Below are positions 18,383-44,130 of a stretch of DNA of 64,000 nucleotides, in pieces. How positions within the stretch are numbered: position 1 is the stretch's first letter; every line of letters begins with the position of its first letter. Source of the stretch: an uncultured Pseudomonadota bacterium (lineage in GTDB: Bacteria; Pseudomonadota; Alphaproteobacteria; UBA9219). The translations under genes and the position numbers were made by a program. The stretch spans positions 10,428 through 74,427 of the forward strand of contig CAIXHP010000026.1 of the NCBI GenBank assembly GCA_903919315.1, written 5' to 3'. The notes beneath the pieces were generated by a model. It was not told the DNA's origin and ran no database searches. It saw only the letters and a program-made list of their open reading frames with translations.

Positions 18383-18772
18383 ATGACAACAACCTCTCTT
18401 CATCGCATGGCCAAGGCGTTCGCCTGCGGAGCTTTGCTACTCTCCCTCTGTATCCTCCCCACCGGCGCTGCTTTTGCAGAAAGGCTCTTTCCGCCGCTTG
18501 ACGCAACCGGGACGGTTGACTGCGCCGTTAACGCAGGCGACAAAGTCCTTTTGTGGGACACATCGAACGGCGGAAGAGTGCGCTGCGACGAGAAAGCAAA
18601 CGTATTCTCGACTTTGTGGGAATGTTCGCCCGGACAATACATTACCAAAATTGTCAACGGTGAGCCGCAATGCAAAAACATCGTACGTGCAGCCATTGCA
18701 TGCCCTGCGAATGAATATCTCACCGGCATTAACACCGATGGATCTGCGGTTTGCAAACCCATGAACCCATAG
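18383..18772 (+). CDS. Secreted cysteine-rich protein, paralog A (129 aa, 6 Cys in the mature part)
   Basis: Signal peptide ...TGAAFA followed by ERLFPP. Two copies of a C-P-x-x-Q/E-Y-x-T-x-I...C module. First of three tandem paralogs. Confidence 0.6.
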   Translation: MTTTSLHRMAKAFACGALLLSLCILPTGAAFAERLFPPLDATGTVDCAVNAGDKVLLWDTSNGGRVRCDEKANVFSTLWECSPGQYITKIVNGEPQCKNIVRAAIACPANEYLTGINTDGSAVCKPMNP

Positions 18773-18840
18773 CGCTTTCATTGAGGGCCAAACGATCCGG
18801 CTCTCTTGTCCTACACGTTCTTGACACCATGAGGAATTTG

Positions 18841-19410
18841 ATGCGCATCCCACCCAAGTTCACCAAAGTCATAGCACAAGGCCTTCTGGTTTTAGGTCTG
18901 GCGGCGCTTTTTGCGGATCTGGCGCAGGCGGGCGAATTGTTTCCTCCAACCCGCGCCAACGGCACAGGAATATGCAATCTGAACGATCAGGTTCTGGTGT
19001 GGGATTCGACGGGCGGAAAAAATAAGTGCGTGTCCAAATCGTCCTTTATCACAGCACAAGCGCGATGCCCGGTTGGACAGTTTGTGACGAAAGTCGAGAA
19101 CAGCGTTCTCACCTGTTCGGCGCCCAAGTTTCCGCGCGTAACCTGTCAGGATAAAGAATTTCTGACAGGTATCAATGCTGACGGAACACCTATCTGCTCA
19201 CTCCCGCCCGCGACCCTATGCCCCGCAGCGTCCGGTCGATGCGTGGGGGGGGGGCAATTTGACATGATTGCGCAAAACAACGTCGTCTGCTGGCACACAA
19301 ACCCAAGAACGGGGGACTGCACATGTCCATCCGACTGCACGACGCTTGAGGGCGCGCACTGGAAACCCAGCAATCATACCTCAGCCGCCGTCTTTTTCTG
19401 CATCCCGTGA
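18841..19410 (+). CDS. Secreted cysteine-rich protein, paralog B (about 190 aa; conserved core plus a Cys-rich C-terminal extension)
   Basis: ATG at 18841 is preceded by GAGGAA. Signal peptide ...DLAQA followed by GELFPP. Same six-Cys core as paralog A. Confidence 0.6.
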   Translation: MRIPPKFTKVIAQGLLVLGLAALFADLAQAGELFPPTRANGTGICNLNDQVLVWDSTGGKNKCVSKSSFITAQARCPVGQFVTKVENSVLTCSAPKFPRVTCQDKEFLTGINADGTPICSLPPATLCPAASGRCVGGGQFDMIAQNNVVCWHTNPRTGDCTCPSDCTTLEGAHWKPSNHTSAAVFFCIP

Positions 19411-20148: not shown

Positions 20149-20225
20149 CGGAGAGTAGCTCAGCCCGGTAGAGCACTGCCTTCGGGAGGCAGGGGCCGGA
20201 GGTTCGAATCCTCTCTCTCCGACCA
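20149..20225 (+). tRNA. tRNA-Pro (anticodon CGG)
   Basis: 77-nt cloverleaf: acceptor CGGAGAG/CTCTCCG, D-arm AGCTCAGCCCGGTAGAGC, anticodon stem CTGCC/GGCAG with loop TTCGGGA, T-arm GGTTCGAATCC, 3' CCA encoded. Confidence 0.85.
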
Positions 20226-20285: not shown

Positions 20286-21848
20286 CTAGGTCACCACCTC
20301 GGCCGCTCCGCCCTCGCGCTGGACCACGAGCCAGTTCTGGCGGCCGGTCTGGAAGTTGATGCTGCCGGTCAACCCCAATGCCTCCAGCGTGTGAACGTAC
20401 AATCCGCGTAGTTCTTCGGGCAAGCCATGGGGAAGGGGGCGCTCGCTCCGCACGACAAGTTCAAGCTGCCGTGGCCGTGCCAGCCCGTCCATTTGCATCG
20501 CCCCGAGGCGCGACATGTTCATGCTGATAAGAAAGCGCGTTTGCTTCGCAAGCTCAGCTCCGGCCAAGCTCGACTGCCTCTGCTGGCCGTCCCGATGCAC
20601 ATAGAGCCTGAGCATCTGGAACTGCCCTTGATCGATGATCGGAAAGGGGAAAGCCCGCCACTCCCCGACCGTGGTGTCGCGGGCTGGGGCCGAGGCCTGT
20701 TGCAGTTCGTCGATCAGCTTGGCGATAAGCTCGCGTTTTCCGTCTTTGTCCAGCTTGCCCGTCGCCTCTTCGCCCAGCCATCCCGTCACGCCGCTCTGCT
20801 GCAAGACGTTGAACAGAAACAGCATGGAACCGGGCAGGGCAGCGTTGGCTTGCGGAACCCGCGTGTGCAAGACCTGCTGCGCCAGTGCCGGATCAAGCTG
20901 CTGCAACGCCGCCATCAATTTTTGCAAAGAGGGAGCTGAATCGTCTGGGTTTATCGGCCATGCAATCGCCGCTGCTTCCTCCGACGGAAGCACCGATAAC
21001 AGGAGTCTGCTTCCCGTTGGCAAGTCCGCGCTCTGGCGCACGAAGAGCGATGTGCCCTCGACACGCAGCAAAAGCCCGCCATGACCGCCTTTGCCGACCA
21101 CGGTGGCAACAAACTGGTCGGCTGTTTCGGGAACCGGCGCTAACGCATTCGGCGCGACGACGCTATCAACCCGTAGCCTCAGCTCCGCGCCAAAGCTTTG
21201 AAGATTCACATTGGCAGGGCCGGTCTTCACCACCGCCCCCGTCGTCACGGATGGCGTTTGAGCAACCGCCGTCGATGAGATGGCTTTCGGCAAAGCCTGC
21301 GTTGCGGGAGCCGTACCCCCTGAAGAGGTCGTCGCCAACTTGGTTGATGGCTCCGGCACCCGCCCGAAATCCCCCGGCAAGACAACGGCTGAAAGCGTCA
21401 GTCCGGGCGCGATAGGCGGCCCTGATGGCTTGAGTCCCTGAGCGAAGGCGACTAACGGCGCTGCGGAACTTCCGCCTGCAAACGGCTCCATGACCGAAGG
21501 CGGCACCAGCAAGAATGCCTGTGTCGGAGGACTTCCGGGTTGGAGGATGAGGCCGACGGGACGTTGGCTCTGTGCCATCGGCGCAAGAAACGAAGCCAGA
21601 GGATTGGTCGTGCCGTTCGGCAGAGGCGAAGCGCCGAGAGTCAAATTTCCCGCCGCCGTTTGCATCGTAAAAACGCCGTCATCCAACAGCGCCACAATCG
21701 GGCCGTTAAGTTGGATCGCGCGAGCCAATTGCTCAAGCTTGCTCGGCAGGGACTGGATCGCAACGCTTAACAACGCCACTTCGTCCGGCACAGCGTTCGT
21801 TAACAAGGCCGTCGCAACGGTGGCATTCAGAGGGGGGAGATCGACCAT
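20286..21848 (-). CDS. Putative flagellar hook-length control protein (FliK-like). Pro/Ala/Thr-rich with a FliK-like C-terminal domain.
   Basis: Last gene of the flagellar operon. C-terminal region ...MSRLGAMQMDGLARPRQLELVV..ERPLPHGLPEELRGLYVHTLEALGLTG fits the FliK C-terminal pattern. Low-complexity N-terminal two-thirds. Confidence 0.4.
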   Translation of the reverse strand: MVDLPPLNATVATALLTNAVPDEVALLSVAIQSLPSKLEQLARAIQLNGPIVALLDDGVFTMQTAAGNLTLGASPLPNGTTNPLASFLAPMAQSQRPVGLILQPGSPPTQAFLLVPPSVMEPFAGGSSAAPLVAFAQGLKPSGPPIAPGLTLSAVVLPGDFGRVPEPSTKLATTSSGGTAPATQALPKAISSTAVAQTPSVTTGAVVKTGPANVNLQSFGAELRLRVDSVVAPNALAPVPETADQFVATVVGKGGHGGLLLRVEGTSLFVRQSADLPTGSRLLLSVLPSEEAAAIAWPINPDDSAPSLQKLMAALQQLDPALAQQVLHTRVPQANAALPGSMLFLFNVLQQSGVTGWLGEEATGKLDKDGKRELIAKLIDELQQASAPARDTTVGEWRAFPFPIIDQGQFQMLRLYVHRDGQQRQSSLAGAELAKQTRFLISMNMSRLGAMQMDGLARPRQLELVVRSERPLPHGLPEELRGLYVHTLEALGLTGSINFQTGRQNWLVVQREGGAAEVVT

Positions 21849-29308: not shown

Positions 29309-30976
29309 TTAACGGTTCTCTTGATAGATCCAGTTGCGCAGGATCGAAACGGCTTCTTCGGGATGTTTGTCGACGATCTCGCCCACTTTACGCAGCGACG
29401 AGGCCTTGACGCGTCCCTCGACGCGGGAAATGTCGATCATCTTTTCGATTTCGGATTCGGTGTCCTGCGCCTCGCTCTGCACTTCGCGCATGAACGCGCC
29501 ACCGCCGGGAGGCGGCAACTGAGCGGTGCCGCCGCCATAGCCGGTCGAAGCCAGCATTTGTTGCTGATCGCTGACGATCGCGCCCGCCGAGTCAAAGATG
29601 CGCCGCAAGATGGGGCGGACGATCAACAGCACGACCAGCAGGCCGATGAACGCAAGCGACAGCGTTTGCACCATGCGCAGCAAGTCGGCCTTCGGCACGC
29701 CCATCAGCATTTCAGGACTGCCGTTCTCGTTCTTGCCCGCCTCAGCCTGAGCAAAGCGCATGTTCGCGACTTCTAGCGTATCGCCGCGATTGGCATCAAA
29801 GTTGACCGCCGAACGCGCCAGAGCCTTGATTTGCTCCATCTCCTCCGCCGTGCGCGGTTGATAGGTTTGCGTTCCGTCGGCGGCGGTCGTGGTGTTGCCG
29901 TCCACGACGACGGCGACGGACAGGCGCTTGACCGAACCGGACTCGCGCACTTGGCTGCGCACCGTTTTGTTGATTTCGTAATTGACGGTTTCTTCGCTGC
30001 GGTTGGTCTTGTTGTTGGTGCCGCCGCCCGCCGGAGCCGCCGTCGGATTGCCGGGCAGGTTGTTGTTGATGGAAACGCTCTCGCCACCACCCTCGGAGTT
30101 GCTTGTGTCTTCGTTGGTGCTTTGGGTCGAACGGATCACCTGACTCTCAGGATCATAGATTTCCGAATTCGTGGTGATGCGGTCAAAGTCGAGTTCGGCG
30201 GACACCTGCGCCCGCGCCTTGCCATAGCCAAGAGTCTGCGACAGCAAATCCTCGATCTTACGCGCCTGCGTCTGTTCAAAGGTCACGCGCATGTCGTCCT
30301 GGTTGCCTGACGCTCCGCCTTCGCCGCTGGCAGGACGGGCGAGCAGGTTGCCTTTGTCGTCGATGATGGAAATTTGCTGCGGCTGGAGTTGCGGCACGGC
30401 GGCGGCGATAAGGTGCTGAATAGCGGCAATTTGCTCGCGTCCTAAAACGACACCGCCTCGCGCTTTGAGAAAGACGCTGGCGGTGGCAACCTGCGTATTG
30501 TGGCTGAACAACTCGCGCTGCGGCAATACCAGATGCACGCGCGCGGACTGAATCACGGTCATCGTGCTGATCGTGCGGGCCAGTTCGCCTTCCAGCGCGC
30601 GCAGGTGGTTGATGTTCTGAACAAAGCTGGTGGTGCCAAAGCCTTCTTTCTGATCAAAGATTTCATAGCCGATGGAGCCGCCCTTTGGCAGCCCTTCGCC
30701 CGCGATCATCATACGTAACTTGCCGACTTGCTCGGACGGCACGCGGATCATGCCGCCGGTGGCCGCGACTTCGTAGGGGACTTTCAGACTGTCCAGCTTT
30801 TGGATGATGGCTCCGGCATCCTGCTGATCGAGATTGTCATACAGCAAGGCCATAGGCGAGGAGGCGATCCGCGTCGTCAGAAAGCCAAAGAATCCGAGCA
30901 AACTAAAGGTCACGATCGCGATGGCCGCAAGGCGCATCGGGCCGAGGTTGCGCAAGGTTTGCAAAAAGGCGTTCAC
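29309..30976 (-). CDS. fliF: Flagellar M-ring protein FliF
   Basis: 555 aa. N-terminal TM, YscJ/FliF domain, C-terminal TM plus FliG-binding tail. First gene of the operon. GTG start at 30976. Confidence 0.9.
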   Translation of the reverse strand: MNAFLQTLRNLGPMRLAAIAIVTFSLLGFFGFLTTRIASSPMALLYDNLDQQDAGAIIQKLDSLKVPYEVAATGGMIRVPSEQVGKLRMMIAGEGLPKGGSIGYEIFDQKEGFGTTSFVQNINHLRALEGELARTISTMTVIQSARVHLVLPQRELFSHNTQVATASVFLKARGGVVLGREQIAAIQHLIAAAVPQLQPQQISIIDDKGNLLARPASGEGGASGNQDDMRVTFEQTQARKIEDLLSQTLGYGKARAQVSAELDFDRITTNSEIYDPESQVIRSTQSTNEDTSNSEGGGESVSINNNLPGNPTAAPAGGGTNNKTNRSEETVNYEINKTVRSQVRESGSVKRLSVAVVVDGNTTTAADGTQTYQPRTAEEMEQIKALARSAVNFDANRGDTLEVANMRFAQAEAGKNENGSPEMLMGVPKADLLRMVQTLSLAFIGLLVVLLIVRPILRRIFDSAGAIVSDQQQMLASTGYGGGTAQLPPPGGGAFMREVQSEAQDTESEIEKMIDISRVEGRVKASSLRKVGEIVDKHPEEAVSILRNWIYQENR

Positions 30977-31082
30977 GTTCGGACAACTCCTTTGCGGGGC
31001 GGTCAGCCAGAAGAGCCGACCTTACACGGAAACACTGATTCGCGACCAAAGCAGACAGGGCGGCAGAAACTGCCTACCCCCA

Positions 31083-31129
31083 TTAAGGTTAACGGACGCT
31101 AACGCCGTGTTTGTCAACATTATGTTAAC
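31083..31129. promoter_or_regulatory. Candidate CtrA-type boxes in the fliF upstream region (TTAA-N7-TAAC at 31089-31103; TCAA-N7-TTAAC at 31114-31129). Three GTTAAC hexamers lie in the divergent region.
   Basis: Read from the sequence. The CtrA consensus TTAA-N7-TTAAC upstream of class-II flagellar genes in alphaproteobacteria is established. Each box has one mismatch. Confidence 0.35.
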
Positions 31130-31335
31130 AAACTAGGCATTTTCTGCCCGGTTGGCCCGGAGTTCTGTGTCGTTCTTGCAACGAGATTTGAAAACGGCTC
31201 CGAACCAAGCCCTATGGTTAACATTGGCACAGCTTTTGGCAAGGATAATCGCACAGCCTAAAACCCACCTCGATTCGCAAGAATTAACCAATTTCTTTCC
31301 ATTTTTTCGTTTTGCTTTCATAAAACTTCGCTAGA

Positions 31336-32844
31336 ATGCCAGAGGGTTTCGTTTCCTCAATGAGTTTATGCGAAAGGGTTTTTGCTATGGCGAATTGGTT
31401 TAGCAAATTCATTGGCAGCAGGTTAGTGACCAGAGTCGGTATTCCCGATATAGACGAACACGAACTAATGGCAACGCCGAGTCCGGACTCACAATACAGG
31501 CAGACCTTCGCAGTAGAATCTATGGGAACATCTGACGCGAGTATAGTGCCCCCACGCAATGCCTTGAGGCTGCTAGCGACGGAGCAAGCAGCACGCGTCG
31601 AAACAGATCAGCCGGGACATATTGGAACTAGACAGGAAGGTGCCGATGTTACGGCGCCACCGAATGAACCCGAACCACTCGCCGCCAAGAAACCAGCCAA
31701 GATTTACAAGATGAGGCGACCTTGGCCTTTGGACTCAGGTGCCAACACGGCCCCAGACCCGCACTATACTAAGTTCCAGACCCCCACCGTTGATCGCCTT
31801 AGAGCCCACGGGAATCAAACAGCCCCTATCGACACGCCGGATTACGCGATCTACGAGACTCCTTTTTTCCTAAGGCAGCTCGGCGGCCTTATCACGCTTC
31901 CTCTATTTGCCGAGGGATTGGAAGCAAAGACAGTGGCTGGACAATCTGATATTTTACCGAGAACCATGAGTATCAGCAGACCCCAAACGGACGCCACAGA
32001 AACATATGATTGGCTCGACCTTCCTGAGTTTCTTGGAGCACATGCTTTCCCGCCAACACATAATCCGCAAGACATCCCTGCCTTTTTCCAAACACCCGCA
32101 GGGCCAACAGCCCAAGAGGAACCACCGCTCGCACCTTGGATCACACATTATACAAATGCTTTTGGTGCGCTCAGTCATGAACAGGTCGGGCCTGTCACAC
32201 ACTTCCATTTTTCGGATCGCACGCGCAGTACGGTCTCGCTCCATCGTGCCGCTGATCCGGCCCAATACCGCATCACCGCGACTCCGGGTCTGACGGATGG
32301 AATGGCCAGACTGATCGTTCTGGCGGGGCATAAAGAAATGGGCGGAATCCGCCTTGATACCGAGGCATCTCAGGACGACAAACTGAGACTGTATGTAGCC
32401 GCCCAAACGGTTCTTCTTGAGCGTATGCTTGATGATGTGAGATCAGGAAATCTGGCCACTACAAACCCAGAGTTGGTGGAAATCGTCGCAGGCCGCAGTC
32501 GGCCTCCGGTCGTTGTCTTCGAAGACGGCACAGCGCCACAGGGTGGCCTTTTCAGACCAGCGCCAGAAGTAGCTACTGCTGTTGACGCGCATATTGCCAG
32601 AACAAGACAAGAACTTCTTGCTGAGCTTCAAGCAGCCATAACTACGCCTACACAGACAGCTAATCAACCAGCGCAAGATAGCGGTCGTCTGGGGAAACCA
32701 CACAGAGCTAATCACTCTCTTCTGACCACACCGTCGCAACAGGGCAGTGCCTCGCCTCAAGGGACGGTTAGGAAAAGACGAAGCAACAGGTCTCATGCGA
32801 GTGCGCCCACCACTAGGATGCCATCACCAGGCTCCGCCATCTAA
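31336..32844 (+). CDS. Hypothetical protein (502 aa, or about 485 aa from MANWF). No recognisable domain. Lower GC than the surroundings.
   Basis: Long ORF divergent from fliF, Pro/Thr/Gln-rich, no signal peptide. Composition drop over 31100-33000. Confidence 0.5.
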   Translation: MPEGFVSSMSLCERVFAMANWFSKFIGSRLVTRVGIPDIDEHELMATPSPDSQYRQTFAVESMGTSDASIVPPRNALRLLATEQAARVETDQPGHIGTRQEGADVTAPPNEPEPLAAKKPAKIYKMRRPWPLDSGANTAPDPHYTKFQTPTVDRLRAHGNQTAPIDTPDYAIYETPFFLRQLGGLITLPLFAEGLEAKTVAGQSDILPRTMSISRPQTDATETYDWLDLPEFLGAHAFPPTHNPQDIPAFFQTPAGPTAQEEPPLAPWITHYTNAFGALSHEQVGPVTHFHFSDRTRSTVSLHRAADPAQYRITATPGLTDGMARLIVLAGHKEMGGIRLDTEASQDDKLRLYVAAQTVLLERMLDDVRSGNLATTNPELVEIVAGRSRPPVVVFEDGTAPQGGLFRPAPEVATAVDAHIARTRQELLAELQAAITTPTQTANQPAQDSGRLGKPHRANHSLLTTPSQQGSASPQGTVRKRRSNRSHASAPTTRMPSPGSAI

Positions 32845-33080
32845 CAGGCCTCGCGATACTATGTCGCTCTTTTCGTGCGGCTGATGTATAGTCAGCGCCG
32901 TATAATCTAATCATAACGAAGAGAGATAATGGGATGCCCGCCTACGCTGGCATGCTGGGATTTGTGTTTGAATTCAATTCACCATCGGCACCCCCGCATA
33001 AGCGCGGATCTCATTTTTTAAATCATTTTATCCAACTTGGGCTATAGTTTTTGCTACAAGCTTCACGAAACGGGTTTTTT

Positions 33081-33977
33081 ATGTCTCACCTGATCGGCCT
33101 CGACATCGGCGGAACAAAGATCGCAGGCGGCCTTTTGTCGCCACAGGGTGCGATGTTGTCCCAAAGACAAGTTCCCACACCCAAGGACTACGCGGACTTT
33201 CTGGATGTCTGTCGCGATATGGCACTGGCGCTTGAACGGGAGGCGGGAACACAGGCCCGCGTCGGCGTAGGCATCGCGGGACGTATCGACCGCGAACGTG
33301 GCTGCGTAAGCTCGGCCAACTTATCCTTCCTGACCGGCAAACCTCTGCTGCACGATCTTGAGGCTAAACTGGGGCGGAACATCCGCCTCGCCAATGATGC
33401 CAATTGCGCCGCTCTGGCGGAAGCGACCGACGGCGCGGGCGCGAGCTGCACGAGCGTCCTCGGTCTCATCATGGGCACAGGAGTCGGCGCTGGCTTTGTA
33501 TACCAAGGCAAAATCATGGATGGCTTCAATGGCGTGGCCAGCGAAATCGGCCATCTACCATTACCGCACCGCGAGGAGCCCGACGGCCCGCTTGCCCCGT
33601 GCAGTTGCAATCAACAAGGCTGCATCGACAAAACCATCAGCGGAGGCGGACTGGCACGGCTTTACGAAGCCATGACCGGCAAAGCTGCCGATGCCAAACA
33701 GATCGCCGCTCTGTCCAACGGCGGTGATGCCGATGCGCTGCGGGTTCTGGATCGTTTCTATGACGTGGTTGCCAAGGCTATGGTTGTCATCCTGCATACC
33801 TTTGACCCTGAAATCATCGTTGTCAGCGGTGGCCTCAACGCGCTGCCGGGACTTTACGACGAAGTGCCGAAGCGCTGGGGCCGCTATTGCTGCGTTGCTC
33901 AGCCCAAGACGAAATTTGTCCCCGCCCGCTTGGGCGCGACAGCCGGATTGTGGGGCGCGGCCTGGTTGTGGCGGTAA
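33081..33977 (+). CDS. ROK-family sugar kinase, N-acetylglucosamine kinase-like
   Basis: LIGLDIGGTKIAGGL. Zn motif CSCNQQGCID. Next to nagA. Confidence 0.8.
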   Translation: MSHLIGLDIGGTKIAGGLLSPQGAMLSQRQVPTPKDYADFLDVCRDMALALEREAGTQARVGVGIAGRIDRERGCVSSANLSFLTGKPLLHDLEAKLGRNIRLANDANCAALAEATDGAGASCTSVLGLIMGTGVGAGFVYQGKIMDGFNGVASEIGHLPLPHREEPDGPLAPCSCNQQGCIDKTISGGGLARLYEAMTGKAADAKQIAALSNGGDADALRVLDRFYDVVAKAMVVILHTFDPEIIVVSGGLNALPGLYDEVPKRWGRYCCVAQPKTKFVPARLGATAGLWGAAWLWR

Positions 33978-40112: not shown

Positions 40113-40721
40113 CTAGTTCTTTCTGCGCTTATCAGGCGTCCCCACATTTGACAACGGAGCTTTTGGCGCGTTTTTTAAAATTTGTTCTATAGGAATTTTT
40201 CTAACAATCTCTAGAATCTCTCTTTCTTCTTCTGCTATCTTTGTGTCAACAAACTGAACCCATGTTTTTGCTAGATCAATAATTGATTCTATTTCCACAG
40301 TTGACAAACAAGCCACCCTCGTATGCTGGCACTCGATAGAGCTAATACCTTCTTGTTCAACTCGCTCAACCCAATATCTCGCTATTGGCTGACTTTCCTC
40401 ATATGAATTGACCGAATGTGCAATATGTTTATCCCTTATCGCCATCAGACGTTCATGAAAAGCTATTTGTTGCGGAGCAAGCACCACATACCGTTGCTCA
40501 TATAAGGAGACTCTCCGTATACCACCACTAAAAACCCGTCCATACTTGATAATTGCCGCAATCATAAGTGGCTCAACATATGTGCCGAGATTATAGCCAT
40601 TTTTCTGCAGTTCACTCGCGTACTCTAGTACACACAACAAGTCGACACGAACGCTCGTGTAGTCCGAGAGACGCTGGGTATCATCTGTATTTTCTAAATG
40701 AACAAAAGCGTTTGTAGCCAT
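40113..40721 (-). CDS. Hypothetical protein (202 aa) in an AT-rich (about 40% GC) island between der and purF
   Basis: Long ORF in strongly AT-rich DNA. No recognisable domain. Glu/Ile-rich C-terminus. Confidence 0.45.
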   Translation of the reverse strand: MATNAFVHLENTDDTQRLSDYTSVRVDLLCVLEYASELQKNGYNLGTYVEPLMIAAIIKYGRVFSGGIRRVSLYEQRYVVLAPQQIAFHERLMAIRDKHIAHSVNSYEESQPIARYWVERVEQEGISSIECQHTRVACLSTVEIESIIDLAKTWVQFVDTKIAEEEREILEIVRKIPIEQILKNAPKAPLSNVGTPDKRRKN

Positions 40722-43365: not shown

Positions 43366-44130
43366 ATGAGTTTCGGATACACGGATCATTTAAACGTTAC
43401 GGCTGGCCTGCGGAAATTTTGCGGCCTTTGGGATATACCCTATCCCAAAGACGGCGAGTTCTTTGATGGCACAGAGAGCCAGATTTGCTTTACGCCCTTT
43501 GGCCTCGTCATACGGCTTGGGCTTGCGCCCCATCCCCTTGCCGATTATTACCATCCGCTTGTATTGCAACCACTGGCTGCTGCGAAACTGGGCGGCGGTC
43601 GCGTTCTGGAGATTCTGCCCTGGCTTGATACGAACGTGCAGGTGTGGGAGAGCCTTGATTTTGCCGACAGACTCATCCAAGCAACGGAGCCTGACTGGCA
43701 TTGGGCGCACGATCACGTTGCCCGGCGCAATCATGGTCGATTCTCCTGCGAGGATGAGGACATTATCGTCTTGATCGACCGTGGAATGCTGGCGGAAAAC
43801 CGCAGCGCAAAAACGGATCGCGGAACGCAAGGGAAGAACCATAGGTTTCGGCAACAAGCCGACATGTTTGCGACACGATCGCCGCAGGCAAAAGTTTTCA
43901 CCCCATTGAGCAAAGAACTGCGCAAAGCATGCCCCGACGGACTAATGCAGCCCCCGGATAAGCTAAAATTGCAAATATTCTTGGAAAAATGCATGCGAAT
44001 GGCCAACGGCAGCCAACGCGCGCCCCTGACAACGCAAATCCCCAACATCGTTCGGGCAGAGGCCCCTGACCTAAACCGCTATCTACGCGCCACCCGCCAT
44101 CAGTTCTTGCGCCAAGCGGCACCATGCTAG
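43366..44130 (+). CDS. Hypothetical protein (254 aa)
   Basis: ORF with an AT-rich upstream region. No recognisable motif. Trp/His-rich centre. Confidence 0.45.
   Translation: MSFGYTDHLNVTAGLRKFCGLWDIPYPKDGEFFDGTESQICFTPFGLVIRLGLAPHPLADYYHPLVLQPLAAAKLGGGRVLEILPWLDTNVQVWESLDFADRLIQATEPDWHWAHDHVARRNHGRFSCEDEDIIVLIDRGMLAENRSAKTDRGTQGKNHRFRQQADMFATRSPQAKVFTPLSKELRKACPDGLMQPPDKLKLQIFLEKCMRMANGSQRAPLTTQIPNIVRAEAPDLNRYLRATRHQFLRQAAPC

Follow-up and report, generated by a model that had tools for sequence, protein, structure and literature searches.

Back to back with fliF, in the 64,000-nt stretch of alphaproteobacterial DNA analysed here (the window), lies an open reading frame (ORF) that the initial annotation had regarded as an orphan, and its position raises the question of whether the product helps to build the flagellum, is made at the flagellar stage for some other role, or adjoins fliF only incidentally. 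The divergent arrangement of a 502-aa frame and the AT-rich spacer of roughly 360 bp described in that annotation were both confirmed, and the locus is laid out as follows.

29309..30976, minus strand: fliF (PF01514/PF08345 on the identical contig L088)
30977..31335, no strand: fliF-ORF spacer, 359 bp, GC 0.48, AT-rich
31336..32844, plus strand: the ORF, 502 aa counted to the first ATG, from the ORF list
32853..32877, plus strand: weak terminator-like hairpin 9 nt past the ORF stop, with a 6-bp stem, 3 G-C pairs and a T-rich tail
33051..33977, plus strand: ROK-family sugar kinase, co-oriented with the ORF, likely ATG 33081

The fliF gene heads the class-II-type operon fliF-fliG-fliH-fliN-flbD-flhA-flhF-flhG. 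Elsewhere in the window a second orphan, at 20286-21848, is suspected of being FliK, an assignment that no library backs.

The start codon of the ORF is uncertain, with candidates at 31336 (first ATG), 31360 (M9) and 31387 (M18); M9 is the start in the public gene call P0001, and M18 has, on a reading of the sequence, the best Shine-Dalgarno-like context (AAAGGG, then 8 nt). An identical 494-aa product was called on the Logan contig L088, which is the identical contig from an independent assembly. This agreement between assemblies, the 502-codon open frame, the homologues described below and omega values below 1 together establish that the ORF is real and encodes a protein. Its GC content is indeed lower than that of its flanks, as first annotated (0.539, or ~0.54, vs 0.597 in fliF and 0.602 in the ROK gene), its GC3 is 0.487 (~0.49) vs 0.66-0.80 in the neighbours, and its codon-position contrast is weak. 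The protein is rich in Pro (10.0%) and Thr (9.6%), and also in Ala (11.6%), but Gln, which had been listed with them, is unremarkable at 5.2%.

The statement that the product resembles no recognisable protein stood for the curated collections but not in its strict form. No match to the window protein was found in Pfam or NCBIfam at E<=1, hmmscan of six family members against Pfam at E<=10 returned no family, PHROGs and PDB sequences gave no match to the protein or its family, and PADLOC models matched 0 families among the six members, leaving no anti-phage defence match. However, an exhaustive phmmer search of 1.84 billion representatives, the only homology search that proved helpful, recovered three distant homologues (E 9e-11, 2e-8 and 1e-4), so that the refuting condition set in the initial annotation, a frame conserved in no relative, does not apply. 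Word-indexed searches returned nothing beyond the protein itself and three family members, their index being evidently swamped by low-complexity words. The contigs of the three homologues yielded more, giving five relatives and one very distant one in total, and two scans of metagenome collections found no further relatives. All come from metagenome contigs of uncultured Micavibrio-like alphaproteobacteria, in a position adjoining fliF and/or the ROK gene (hereafter the slot). The resulting 'A' family comprises the window ORF, P0002-P0005, L084_494 and L008_481; membership is defined by the conserved core and the fliF/ROK position, and the window ORF has both. Local phmmer within the family gives E 4e-18 to 7e-9, and the family HMM matches the ORF alone within the window. 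L008_481 is weakly linked, through hhalign (E 0.004, probability 8.5%), motif agreement and position. Thus, the searches show a very small family that, as far as these sequence collections reach, is restricted to uncultured Micavibrio-like alphaproteobacteria, and the lineage specificity proposed at the outset is borne out by about six relatives in the same slot.

AlphaFold modelling, a check that had been proposed with the annotation, gave an alpha/beta core (pTM 0.70) within a protein otherwise predicted to be mostly disordered, and the following parts can be distinguished.

31366..31437, plus strand: N-terminal helix, aa 11-34 (LCERVFAMANWFSKFIGSRLVTRV), AlphaFold2 block pLDDT 72-82
31438..32121, plus strand: Pro/Thr/Ser-rich linker, aa 35-262, predicted disordered (pLDDT <50 over 33-263) and net acidic
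31969..31995, plus strand: short motif MSISRPQTD, aligned with relatives and judged by eye, with no statistics
32122..32643, plus strand: alpha/beta core domain, aa ~263-436 (~170 aa), the sole part common to the family
32644..32841, plus strand: basic, Ser/Thr/Pro-rich C-terminal tail, aa 437-502, predicted disordered (pLDDT <50)

The N-terminal helix has a merely moderate hydrophobic moment, is missing from the alignment of relatives and is unconserved. The linker (29 P, 32 S+T, 31 D/E, 18 K/R) is specific to the window protein, bar the columns near aa 210-222 with an ISI..PD-type motif, and the counterparts of MSISRPQTD in relatives read IAIAAPDED and ISIVPPD[DE]EE. The core carries the signature G-G-[ILV]-[KR]-L..S..[DE]DK..LY.AAQT, then P.V.F.D(G), then Y/F.P, and the best phmmer stretches on the ORF protein span residues 200-436, 286-435 and 284-400. 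A model of the core alone, built on 5 sequences, reached pLDDT 73 and pTM 0.70, with the order H-4 beta-H-beta-H-H-beta-H. The full-length AlphaFold2 model of the ORF protein reached pLDDT 46.8 and is unusable for fold searching, its Foldseek matches against the PDB being meaningless, and fold searches gave nothing usable. The full alpha-beta/beta-alpha sandwich and HxHxDH metal site of the metallo-beta-lactamase superfamily are absent from the protein. The basic tail noted in the initial annotation was confirmed at aa 437-502, with 9 K/R vs 1 D/E, and includes RKRRSNRSH...RMPSPGS; its best matches, the C-terminal ends of slot proteins of L001 and L002, are not significant (E 0.13 and 0.35). 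Across orthologue pairs of the family omega is 0.2-0.6, with 0.20 and 0.41 in the core vs 0.38-0.63 outside it, and the ~170-aa core is, judging from these substitution patterns, under purifying selection.

The ROK gene is the family's conserved downstream neighbour, the relatives lying directly upstream of it and co-oriented with it. A comparison with flagellated relatives, likewise foreseen in the annotation, was carried out and showed that presence and copy number vary from 0 to 3, the slot being empty, holding 1-3 A-family paralogues, or holding unrelated orphan genes. The gene orders are fliF-377-489-381-ROK in L081, AspRS-494-278-ROK in L084, with no fliF nearby, and fliF-481-EttA-like ABC-F in L008 (the ABC-F read by eye from its translation). 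In L004, L010 and L013, which retain fliF, fliG and fliH, the slot is empty, fliF and ROK being separated by ~325-350 bp with no gene, and in L001, L002, L006, L007 and L027 the gap of 1.1-3.6 kb contains other orphans, with a 'B' module of ~50 aa repeated in those of L007 and L027. The slot is thus hypervariable, and its alleles diverge far beyond their flanks: the ROK genes of L081 and L084 are 97% identical (dS 0.085) and their slot genes 56-60% (dN 0.30-0.37, dS 0.56-1.37), and between the window and L081 identity is 85% for FliF, 65% for ROK and about 33% for the ORF, which is alignable in the core only. A kinship of the A family with the B-module orphans, suggested by likeness to the eye and by a seeming hybrid in L008, was unsupported by HMM and hhalign comparison; the links that remain between the two are a shared upstream 15-mer and the non-significant tail similarity given above.

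In the spacer between fliF and the ORF the following elements were recognised.

31062..31074, no strand: palindrome GGCAGAAACTGCC (GGCA-N5-TGCC), lying ~86 bp before the start codon of fliF
31089..31102, no strand: TTAACGGACGCTAA, a CtrA-like TTAA-N6-(C)TAA box whose N6 spacing is atypical
31113..31148, no strand: best-conserved block, GTCAACATTATGTTAAC AAACTA GGCATTTTCTGCC, holding the invariant columns of a 12-locus alignment
31217..31241, plus strand: GTTAAC followed by TGGCAC-N5-TTGGCA, facing the ORF, a sigma-54 -24/-12 look-alike
31271..31288, plus strand: CGATTCG...TTAAC, aligning with the slot-gene upstream regions of L081, L001 and L002

The CtrA-like boxes claimed in the initial annotation held in part. 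TTAAC/GTTAA half sites occur at 7 positions in the spacer vs 1.1 expected (P~0.0008), 3/9 of the GTTAAC occurrences in the window fall there, the box at 31089..31102 is a perfect TTAA-N6-TTAA in L005, L006 and L007, and the best-conserved block contains a 1-mismatch TTAA-N7-TTAAC (31114-31129) together with a second GGCA-N5-TGCC palindrome; however, an exact TTAA-N7-TTAA, the canonical CtrA box, has 0 occurrences anywhere in the window. Of the window's three GGCA-N5-TGCC sequences, two lie in the spacer, and the palindrome at 31062..31074, partly conserved in relatives, is a candidate site for an NtrC-type, FlbD-like regulator. Such palindromes may be FlbD-type sites.

All conserved elements of the spacer lie within about 210 bp of fliF, the sites at 31114-31129 and 31089-31102 being 190-250 bp upstream of the ORF and nearer fliF, and they are kept where ROK is the divergent neighbour; the block at 31113..31148 is also kept in L004, L010 and L013, where the slot is empty. 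This persistence in genomes with an empty slot argues that the conserved CtrA-like elements serve fliF first; for co-regulation of the ORF they speak only indirectly and do not demonstrate it. The ORF-proximal 150 bp are unconserved, with half sites at 31217 and 31284 and, as the sole sequence aligning with other slot-gene upstream regions, the stretch at 31271..31288; of 88 loci, L081, L001 and L002 alone contain the 15-mer GTTTGTCAYGATTCG, and the window retains just its CGATTCG. A canonical sigma-54 promoter (GG-N10-GC) before the ORF was ruled out on spacing, the GG and GC of the element at 31225-31241 being 11 nt apart, not 10. Given this non-canonical spacing, and as nothing comparable turned up ahead of the relatives' genes, the sigma-54-like element at 31217..31241 may be a chance occurrence.

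Together, these observations lead us to favour, tentatively, a reading in which the ORF encodes a dispensable, non-enzymatic, lineage-specific accessory or adaptor protein of a hypervariable slot, expressed at the flagellar stage without taking part in building the flagellum. The label 'adaptor' is based on the lack of catalytic signatures and the predicted disorder, no partner, fold match or functionally known motif pointing to it. Transcription of the ORF would begin on that side of the fliF control region, with its CtrA-like TTAAC sites and GGCA-N5-TGCC palindromes, which is remote from fliF. Its product would appear in the motile 'attack' stage, along with the early flagellar proteins, would use the small core domain and short linear motifs to contact its partners, and would not be needed for the flagellum to be built. 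The turnover of the slot suggests either weak constraint or a partner that itself changes, for instance prey, a phage or some other mobile element.

A less likely explanation is that the ORF is horizontally exchanged cargo, the slot being a recombination hot spot at which unrelated accessory genes are exchanged and which adjoins fliF by coincidence, without any functional link to motility. Low GC3 is found not only in the window ORF but in every A-family member (0.49-0.63 vs 0.66-0.83 in neighbours), the dS and dN of the L081-L084 slot genes are far above those of the adjacent ROK gene, the flank is rearranged between these near-identical genomes (fliF in L081, AspRS in L084), at least two slot families lack detectable mutual homology, and three relatives have an empty slot; low GC3 and allele replacement fit cargo as well as they fit an accessory protein. 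On the other hand, no integrase, transposase or other mobile-element gene was found near the ORF, no direct or inverted repeats flank it, no tRNA or Rfam family lies near it (the sole tRNA is 11 kb off), and an IMG/VR viral scan, PLSDB plasmid tblastn and PHROGs gave no phage or plasmid relatives. Among the data searched, the A family is also confined to the Micavibrio-like clade and the fliF/ROK slot. In addition, the 15-mer common to A-type L081 and B-type L001 and L002 points to turnover in place, not import with a foreign promoter.

It is improbable that the product is a secreted or injected predation factor, with the disordered N-terminal part or the basic tail as export signal and with diversification driven by prey. 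Rapid allele turnover and copy-number variation, the lack of a Sec signal together with long disordered termini, and a location beside an export-apparatus operon would agree with it, and among the relatives is the epibiotic predator Micavibrio, in which the flagellar genes belong to the attack phase (PMC3189940). One conceivable route is the type III export gate of the flagellum, whose genes lie in the adjacent operon. No signal peptide or secretion-system context was found for the ORF. However, M. aeruginosavorus is reported to have no type III or type IV secretion systems (PMC3189940). N-termini are unconserved among paralogues, P0005 beginning right at the core, omega is below 1 throughout, and a predatory lifestyle of the window organism is itself inferred from FliF similarity of 74-80%.

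Still more doubtful is a lineage-specific component of the flagellum or of cell polarity, such as a FliK-like hook-length ruler, a partner of FlhF/FlhG or a polar landmark. Divergence from fliF with a common control region would agree with it, flhF and flhG lie in the adjacent operon, and the order of parts, in which a disordered Pro/Thr-rich region leads into a folded C-terminal domain with a disordered tail behind it, is superficially FliK-like. The core flagellar or polarity factor considered initially is nevertheless not supported, in view of slots that are empty, filled with unrelated orphans or carrying 2-3 paralogues, and of L084, where fliF is missing from the neighbourhood; on our best reading the product is not a structural component of the flagellum. 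Finally, a spurious ORF or pseudogene remnant, which low GC3, weak codon-position contrast, the silence of the libraries and a unique, predicted disordered N-terminal 260 aa might suggest, is largely refuted and most improbable, as chance would hardly leave 502 codons open in 54% GC DNA, significant homologues of the core occur at the syntenic position, the core is predicted to fold (pTM 0.70), and the family is under purifying selection.

We also speculate, with equally little confidence as for a flagellar component, that the slot is a diversifying cassette locus in which the promoter region stays, as the 15-mer common to A-type and B-type loci would indicate, and the coding sequence is replaced or reshuffled, its attack-stage products being made together with the flagellar export gate, acting at the predator-prey or predator-phage interface and helping to set prey range. 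As matters stand, the ORF is one more taxonomically restricted gene, though better documented. It founds a small protein family, new to the collections searched, whose ~170-aa conserved domain has no detectable relatives, and a hypervariable slot has been identified beside the master operon for early flagellar genes in a clade that is little studied and probably predatory. Should slot genes be expressed with the flagellum at the attack stage, and should diversifying pressure act on them, their products could be determinants of prey recognition in epibiotic predators. In addition, the TTAA-N6-TTAA box and GGCA-N5-TGCC palindromes upstream of fliF provide a model, open to testing, of how flagellar genes are controlled in bacteria other than Caulobacter and Rhodobacter.

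Several known systems resemble parts of this locus. The ORF product resembles FliK and other T3S4 hook-length control proteins in its flagellar neighbourhood and in its layout, a Pro-rich, variable, disordered region being followed by a small folded alpha/beta domain towards the C-terminus and then by a disordered tail. However, FliK itself was ruled out, since the protein has no sequence or fold match to FliK (Flg_hook, PF02120) and is not one conserved copy across flagellated relatives, the slot gene ranging from 0 to 3 copies and being absent from L004, L010 and L013; presumably, the signature GG[ILV]KL..S..DDK..LY.AAQT is also unlike the C-terminal domain of FliK. The family signature may further resemble, as a lead only, LPD7 (PF18821) and similar small alpha/beta modules in polyvalent proteins of conjugative elements, with a strand-rich start and a helix ending K-[WF]-G-G, after which a beta strand leads to a helix starting S/T-x-[DE]-[DEF]-K. 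None of the six members has a Pfam match (E<=10) and no plasmid or viral relative was found. Another parallel lies with disorder-rich, taxonomically restricted genes at variable loci of predatory bacteria, such as that for Bd0108 in the Bdellovibrio host-interaction locus, with a small, lineage-restricted, largely disordered product encoded beside a surface-appendage cluster in a predatory lineage, although there is no homology with the ORF and the Bdellovibrio locus is tied to pili, not the flagellum.

The control region also has known counterparts. In R. sphaeroides one CtrA site can serve two divergent flagellar promoters (fliL2p-fliF2p), and CtrA sites with N6 spacing are functional (PMC6180460); in Caulobacter, FlbD binds ftr4 upstream of fliF, a class II promoter subject to FlbD repression (PMC3930126). 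As in such CtrA-controlled alphaproteobacterial promoters, the fliF operon here encodes an FlbD-like sigma-54 activator and the spacer holds conserved TTAA-type boxes, including N6, together with palindromes. It differs in that the exact TTAA-N7-TTAA is absent, and in that the divergent partner is an orphan, whereas in the known cases a second flagellar gene takes that place. Attack-phase bias is seen in M. aeruginosavorus ARL-13 both for flagellar genes, fliF among them, and for the hypothetical gene listed near fliF, with values of 30.5/6.9 for GMV_767 and 133.6/11.6 for GMV_769 (PMC3189940, supplement 4). By analogy with this predator, the ORF is possibly co-expressed with the flagellar genes beside which it lies.

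The ORF at 31336..32844 (+) was confirmed, with a 502-aa product, and the initial annotation described it accurately as divergent from fliF (29309..30976, -), lower in GC than its neighbours and ending in a basic tail: GC is 0.539 and GC3 0.487, against 0.58-0.62 and 0.66-0.80 in the neighbours, and residues 437-502 hold 9 K/R to 1 D/E. Ala, Pro and Thr are abundant in the protein, the latter two as claimed, but Gln, at 5.2%, is ordinary. The first ATG lacks a Shine-Dalgarno-like sequence, the public gene call starts at Met9, and the ATG at 31387 (Met18) lies 8 nt after AAAGGG; judged by sequence, Met18 is the most plausible start codon. Past the stop codon lies a weak hairpin whose tail is T-rich, and the ROK sugar-kinase gene starts ~200-240 bp beyond it.

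Neither the protein nor its family matched anything in Pfam, NCBIfam, PHROGs, PADLOC or PDB sequences, and to that extent it has no recognisable similarity, as had been noted, but when 1.84 billion representatives were searched exhaustively with phmmer, three relatives emerged in addition to the protein (P0002, 8.9e-11; P0003, 2e-8; P0004, 1e-4). Two further paralogues, P0005 (377 aa) and a 494-aa protein on L084, lie on the relatives' contigs. Family similarity is restricted to residues ~263-436, hereafter the core, and the family HMM matched nothing else in the window. Two orthologue pairs between the related contigs L081 and L084 gave omega values of 0.20 and 0.41 for the core, against 0.38-0.63 for the remainder. 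It follows that the family is translated and under constraint, and the ORF is a genuine gene belonging to a new and very small family.

In the AlphaFold2 model of the full-length protein (mean pLDDT 46.8), a helix at residues 11-34 (block pLDDT 72-82) is followed by a stretch without confident structure (35-263), a folded region (265-436) and a disordered tail, and the protein is thus predicted to be largely disordered outside its conserved core. Modelled by itself, the core reached pLDDT 73 and pTM 0.70, in the order helix, four strands, helix, strand, long helix, helix, strand, helix. Its invariant residues are concentrated in G-G-[ILV]-[KR]-L..S..[DE]DK..LY.AAQT and, later in the sequence, in P.V.F.D(G) and then Y/F.P; no His/Asp/Cys pattern points to catalysis.

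The fliF operon continues with fliG, fliH (by a weak PF02108 match), fliN, an FlbD-type sigma-54 activator gene, flhA, flhF (an SRP54-type GTPase) and flhG (a MinD/ParA-type ATPase). Upstream of fliF, the contigs of relatives differ in the place that the ORF occupies in the window.

Gene order around the slot between fliF and ROK
Window and L088 (contig identical to the window): fliF(-), ORF, ROK, LysE(-), nagA(-)
L081 (FliF 85% identical to the window's): fliF(-), 377, 489, 381, ROK, HSP33
L084 (no fliF): RNase D(-), AspRS, 494, 278, ROK, HSP33
L008 (FliF 73%): 481-aa protein divergent from fliF, adjoining an EttA-like ABC-F gene (label from reading the ORF translation, not a library match)

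The L081 slot holds three paralogues in tandem. The 481-aa protein of L008 agrees with the core in the motifs QDDK..LYVA.Q and ..DG....Y.P, at an hhalign E of 0.004 and a probability of just 8.5%. In L004, L010 and L013, ROK is directly divergent from fliF across ~325-350 bp, and in six loci the corresponding position is filled, in matching orientation, by other orphans (219-676 aa).

Other slot orphans
L001 6541-7428 (-)
L002 2635-3543 (-)
L005 9074-9733 (-)
L006 1619-2281 (-)
L007 6492-7394 (-) and 7679-9709 (-)
L027 2291-3901 (-)

These are low in GC, have C-terminal tails that are Pro-rich or basic, and contain one to three copies of a ~50-aa module (L..L...G[VI]..[VI].F, then helix); they have no Pfam match, and no similarity between them and the window family could be detected. 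The slot is thus hypervariable, and flagellated relatives can be without the window gene. The 15-mer GTTTGTCAYGATTCG occurs three times among the 88 loci, each time ~120-150 nt 5' of the first slot gene.

Copies of GTTTGTCAYGATTCG
L081 1016-1030 (+), window-type family
L001 7515-7529 (-), other family
L002 3656-3670 (-), other family

Because the two families have it in common, the 5' region of the slot appears to persist while coding sequence turns over; the window retains CGATTCG alone. Relatives further removed (FliF identity 65-70%; L009, L016, L018, L019, L025, L026) have glutamine synthetase upstream of fliF, followed in the first four by a small low-GC3 ORF of 131-169 aa, so the variability upstream of fliF extends to the wider clade.

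Expression values for Micavibrio aeruginosavorus ARL-13, given as attack/attachment phase, are 30.5/6.9 for fliF (GMV_767) and 133.6/11.6 for GMV_769, a 369-bp hypothetical gene two entries past it (PMC3189940, supplement 4), which exceeds fliF. AspRS, RNase D, HAD and ROK are listed together there (GMV_1961-1966), with the attack-phase-biased hypothetical gene GMV_1962 (17.9/0.9) among them (PMC3189940). With moderate to low confidence, we propose that the window protein would be an accessory, non-enzymatic binding protein produced at the motile stage, and that turnover of the slot gene may reflect either weak constraint or a partner that changes (prey, phage). As a diversifying cassette locus, the slot would supply attack-stage proteins; this reading is improbable. 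It is common for orphan genes to occupy variable slots.

Between L081 and L084, ROK is 97% identical (dN 0.016, dS 0.085) and partial HSP33 has a dS of 0.22, and the two slot pairs are 56% and 60% identical (dN 0.37 and 0.30; dS 1.37 and 0.56). Since slot dS also far exceeds that of ROK, with an abrupt change at the ROK border, swapping of old, divergent alleles or recombination between paralogues explains the difference better than does rapid evolution of the proteins alone; weak codon bias may contribute to the difference. GC3 is 0.49-0.63 in all family members and 0.66-0.83 in neighbours. Around the window gene there was no sign of an integrase or transposase, a flanking repeat, a tRNA close by or an Rfam element, and viral contigs, plasmids and JGI metagenome contigs yielded no relatives. 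Upstream of the slot lie fliF and an extra paralogue in L081, and AspRS and RNase D in L084, which indicates that a rearrangement took place precisely at the slot.

The window FliF shares 80% identity with those of MAGs that carry the label Alphaproteobacteria or 'uncultured Rhodospirillaceae', and 74% with those of Micavibrio MAGs; 'Bdellovibrionales' labels arise because NCBI places Micavibrio there. In the genome paper, Micavibrio is regarded as an epibiotic predator belonging to the alphaproteobacteria (PMC3189940). The window organism may itself be a predator. Among the rival readings, incidental exchanged cargo is unlikely, though with an appreciable chance of being right, and a secreted predation factor is an improbable identity for the gene product. 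The initial suggestion of a lineage-specific flagellar or polarity factor stands as to lineage specificity, but a core flagellar or polarity role is slightly less probable still, given flagellated relatives without the gene. A spurious ORF is very improbable, as relatives were found and omega was below 1 in both orthologue pairs.

The window holds a second orphan. Past flhF and flhG at the distal end of the fliF operon, and immediately preceding tRNA-Pro (20149-20225), 20286-21848 (-) encodes a Pro/Ala/Ser/Thr-rich protein of 520 aa without Pfam, NCBIfam or PDB-sequence match even at E<=10, whose C-terminal ~90 aa by eye resemble a candidate FliK-type domain. A 219-aa Cys-rich protein (18751-19410, +) has a hydrophobic N-terminal segment, possibly a signal peptide, and no Pfam match; two more ORFs, at 40113-40721 (-; 202 aa) and 43366-44130 (+; 254 aa), match no Pfam family at E<=0.001.

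The AT-rich control region of 360 bp claimed between fliF and the ORF measures 359 bp at GC 0.48. Its CtrA-like boxes are borne out as an excess of half sites (TTAAC/GTTAA at 7 positions versus 1.1 expected, P~0.0008), but exact TTAA-N7-TTAA is absent from the whole window. The spacer holds three of the window's nine GTTAAC copies and two of its three GGCA-N5-TGCC palindromes. Twelve fliF-upstream regions, all of Micavibrio-like loci, were aligned (window, L001, L002, L004-L008, L010, L013, L027, L081).

Elements of the spacer
31050-31190: conserved footprint upstream of fliF, with GGCA-N5-TGCC palindromes among its elements
31089-31102: TTAA-N6-TTAA box, right half degenerate in the window, perfect in L005, L006 and L007
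31113-31148: GTTAAC-N6-GGCA-N5-TGCC, conserved
FliF-upstream region: TGTG..GCAAC block, conserved
31217: GTTAAC, ORF-proximal, not conserved
31225-31241: sigma-54-like TGGCAC-N5-TTGGCA, ORF-proximal, wrong spacing, not conserved
31284: TTAAC, ORF-proximal, not conserved

All conserved blocks lie within ~210 bp of the fliF start and are equally kept at empty slots, and hence represent the fliF control region or a bidirectional core ancestrally serving ROK. For R. sphaeroides, N6-spaced CtrA sites are on record, as is a single site that drives two divergent flagellar promoters (PMC6180460); in Caulobacter, FlbD binds upstream of fliF (PMC3930126), and the palindromes here may be linked to FlbD. 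The footprint is a candidate control module of the CtrA/FlbD type beyond Caulobacter and Rhodobacter.
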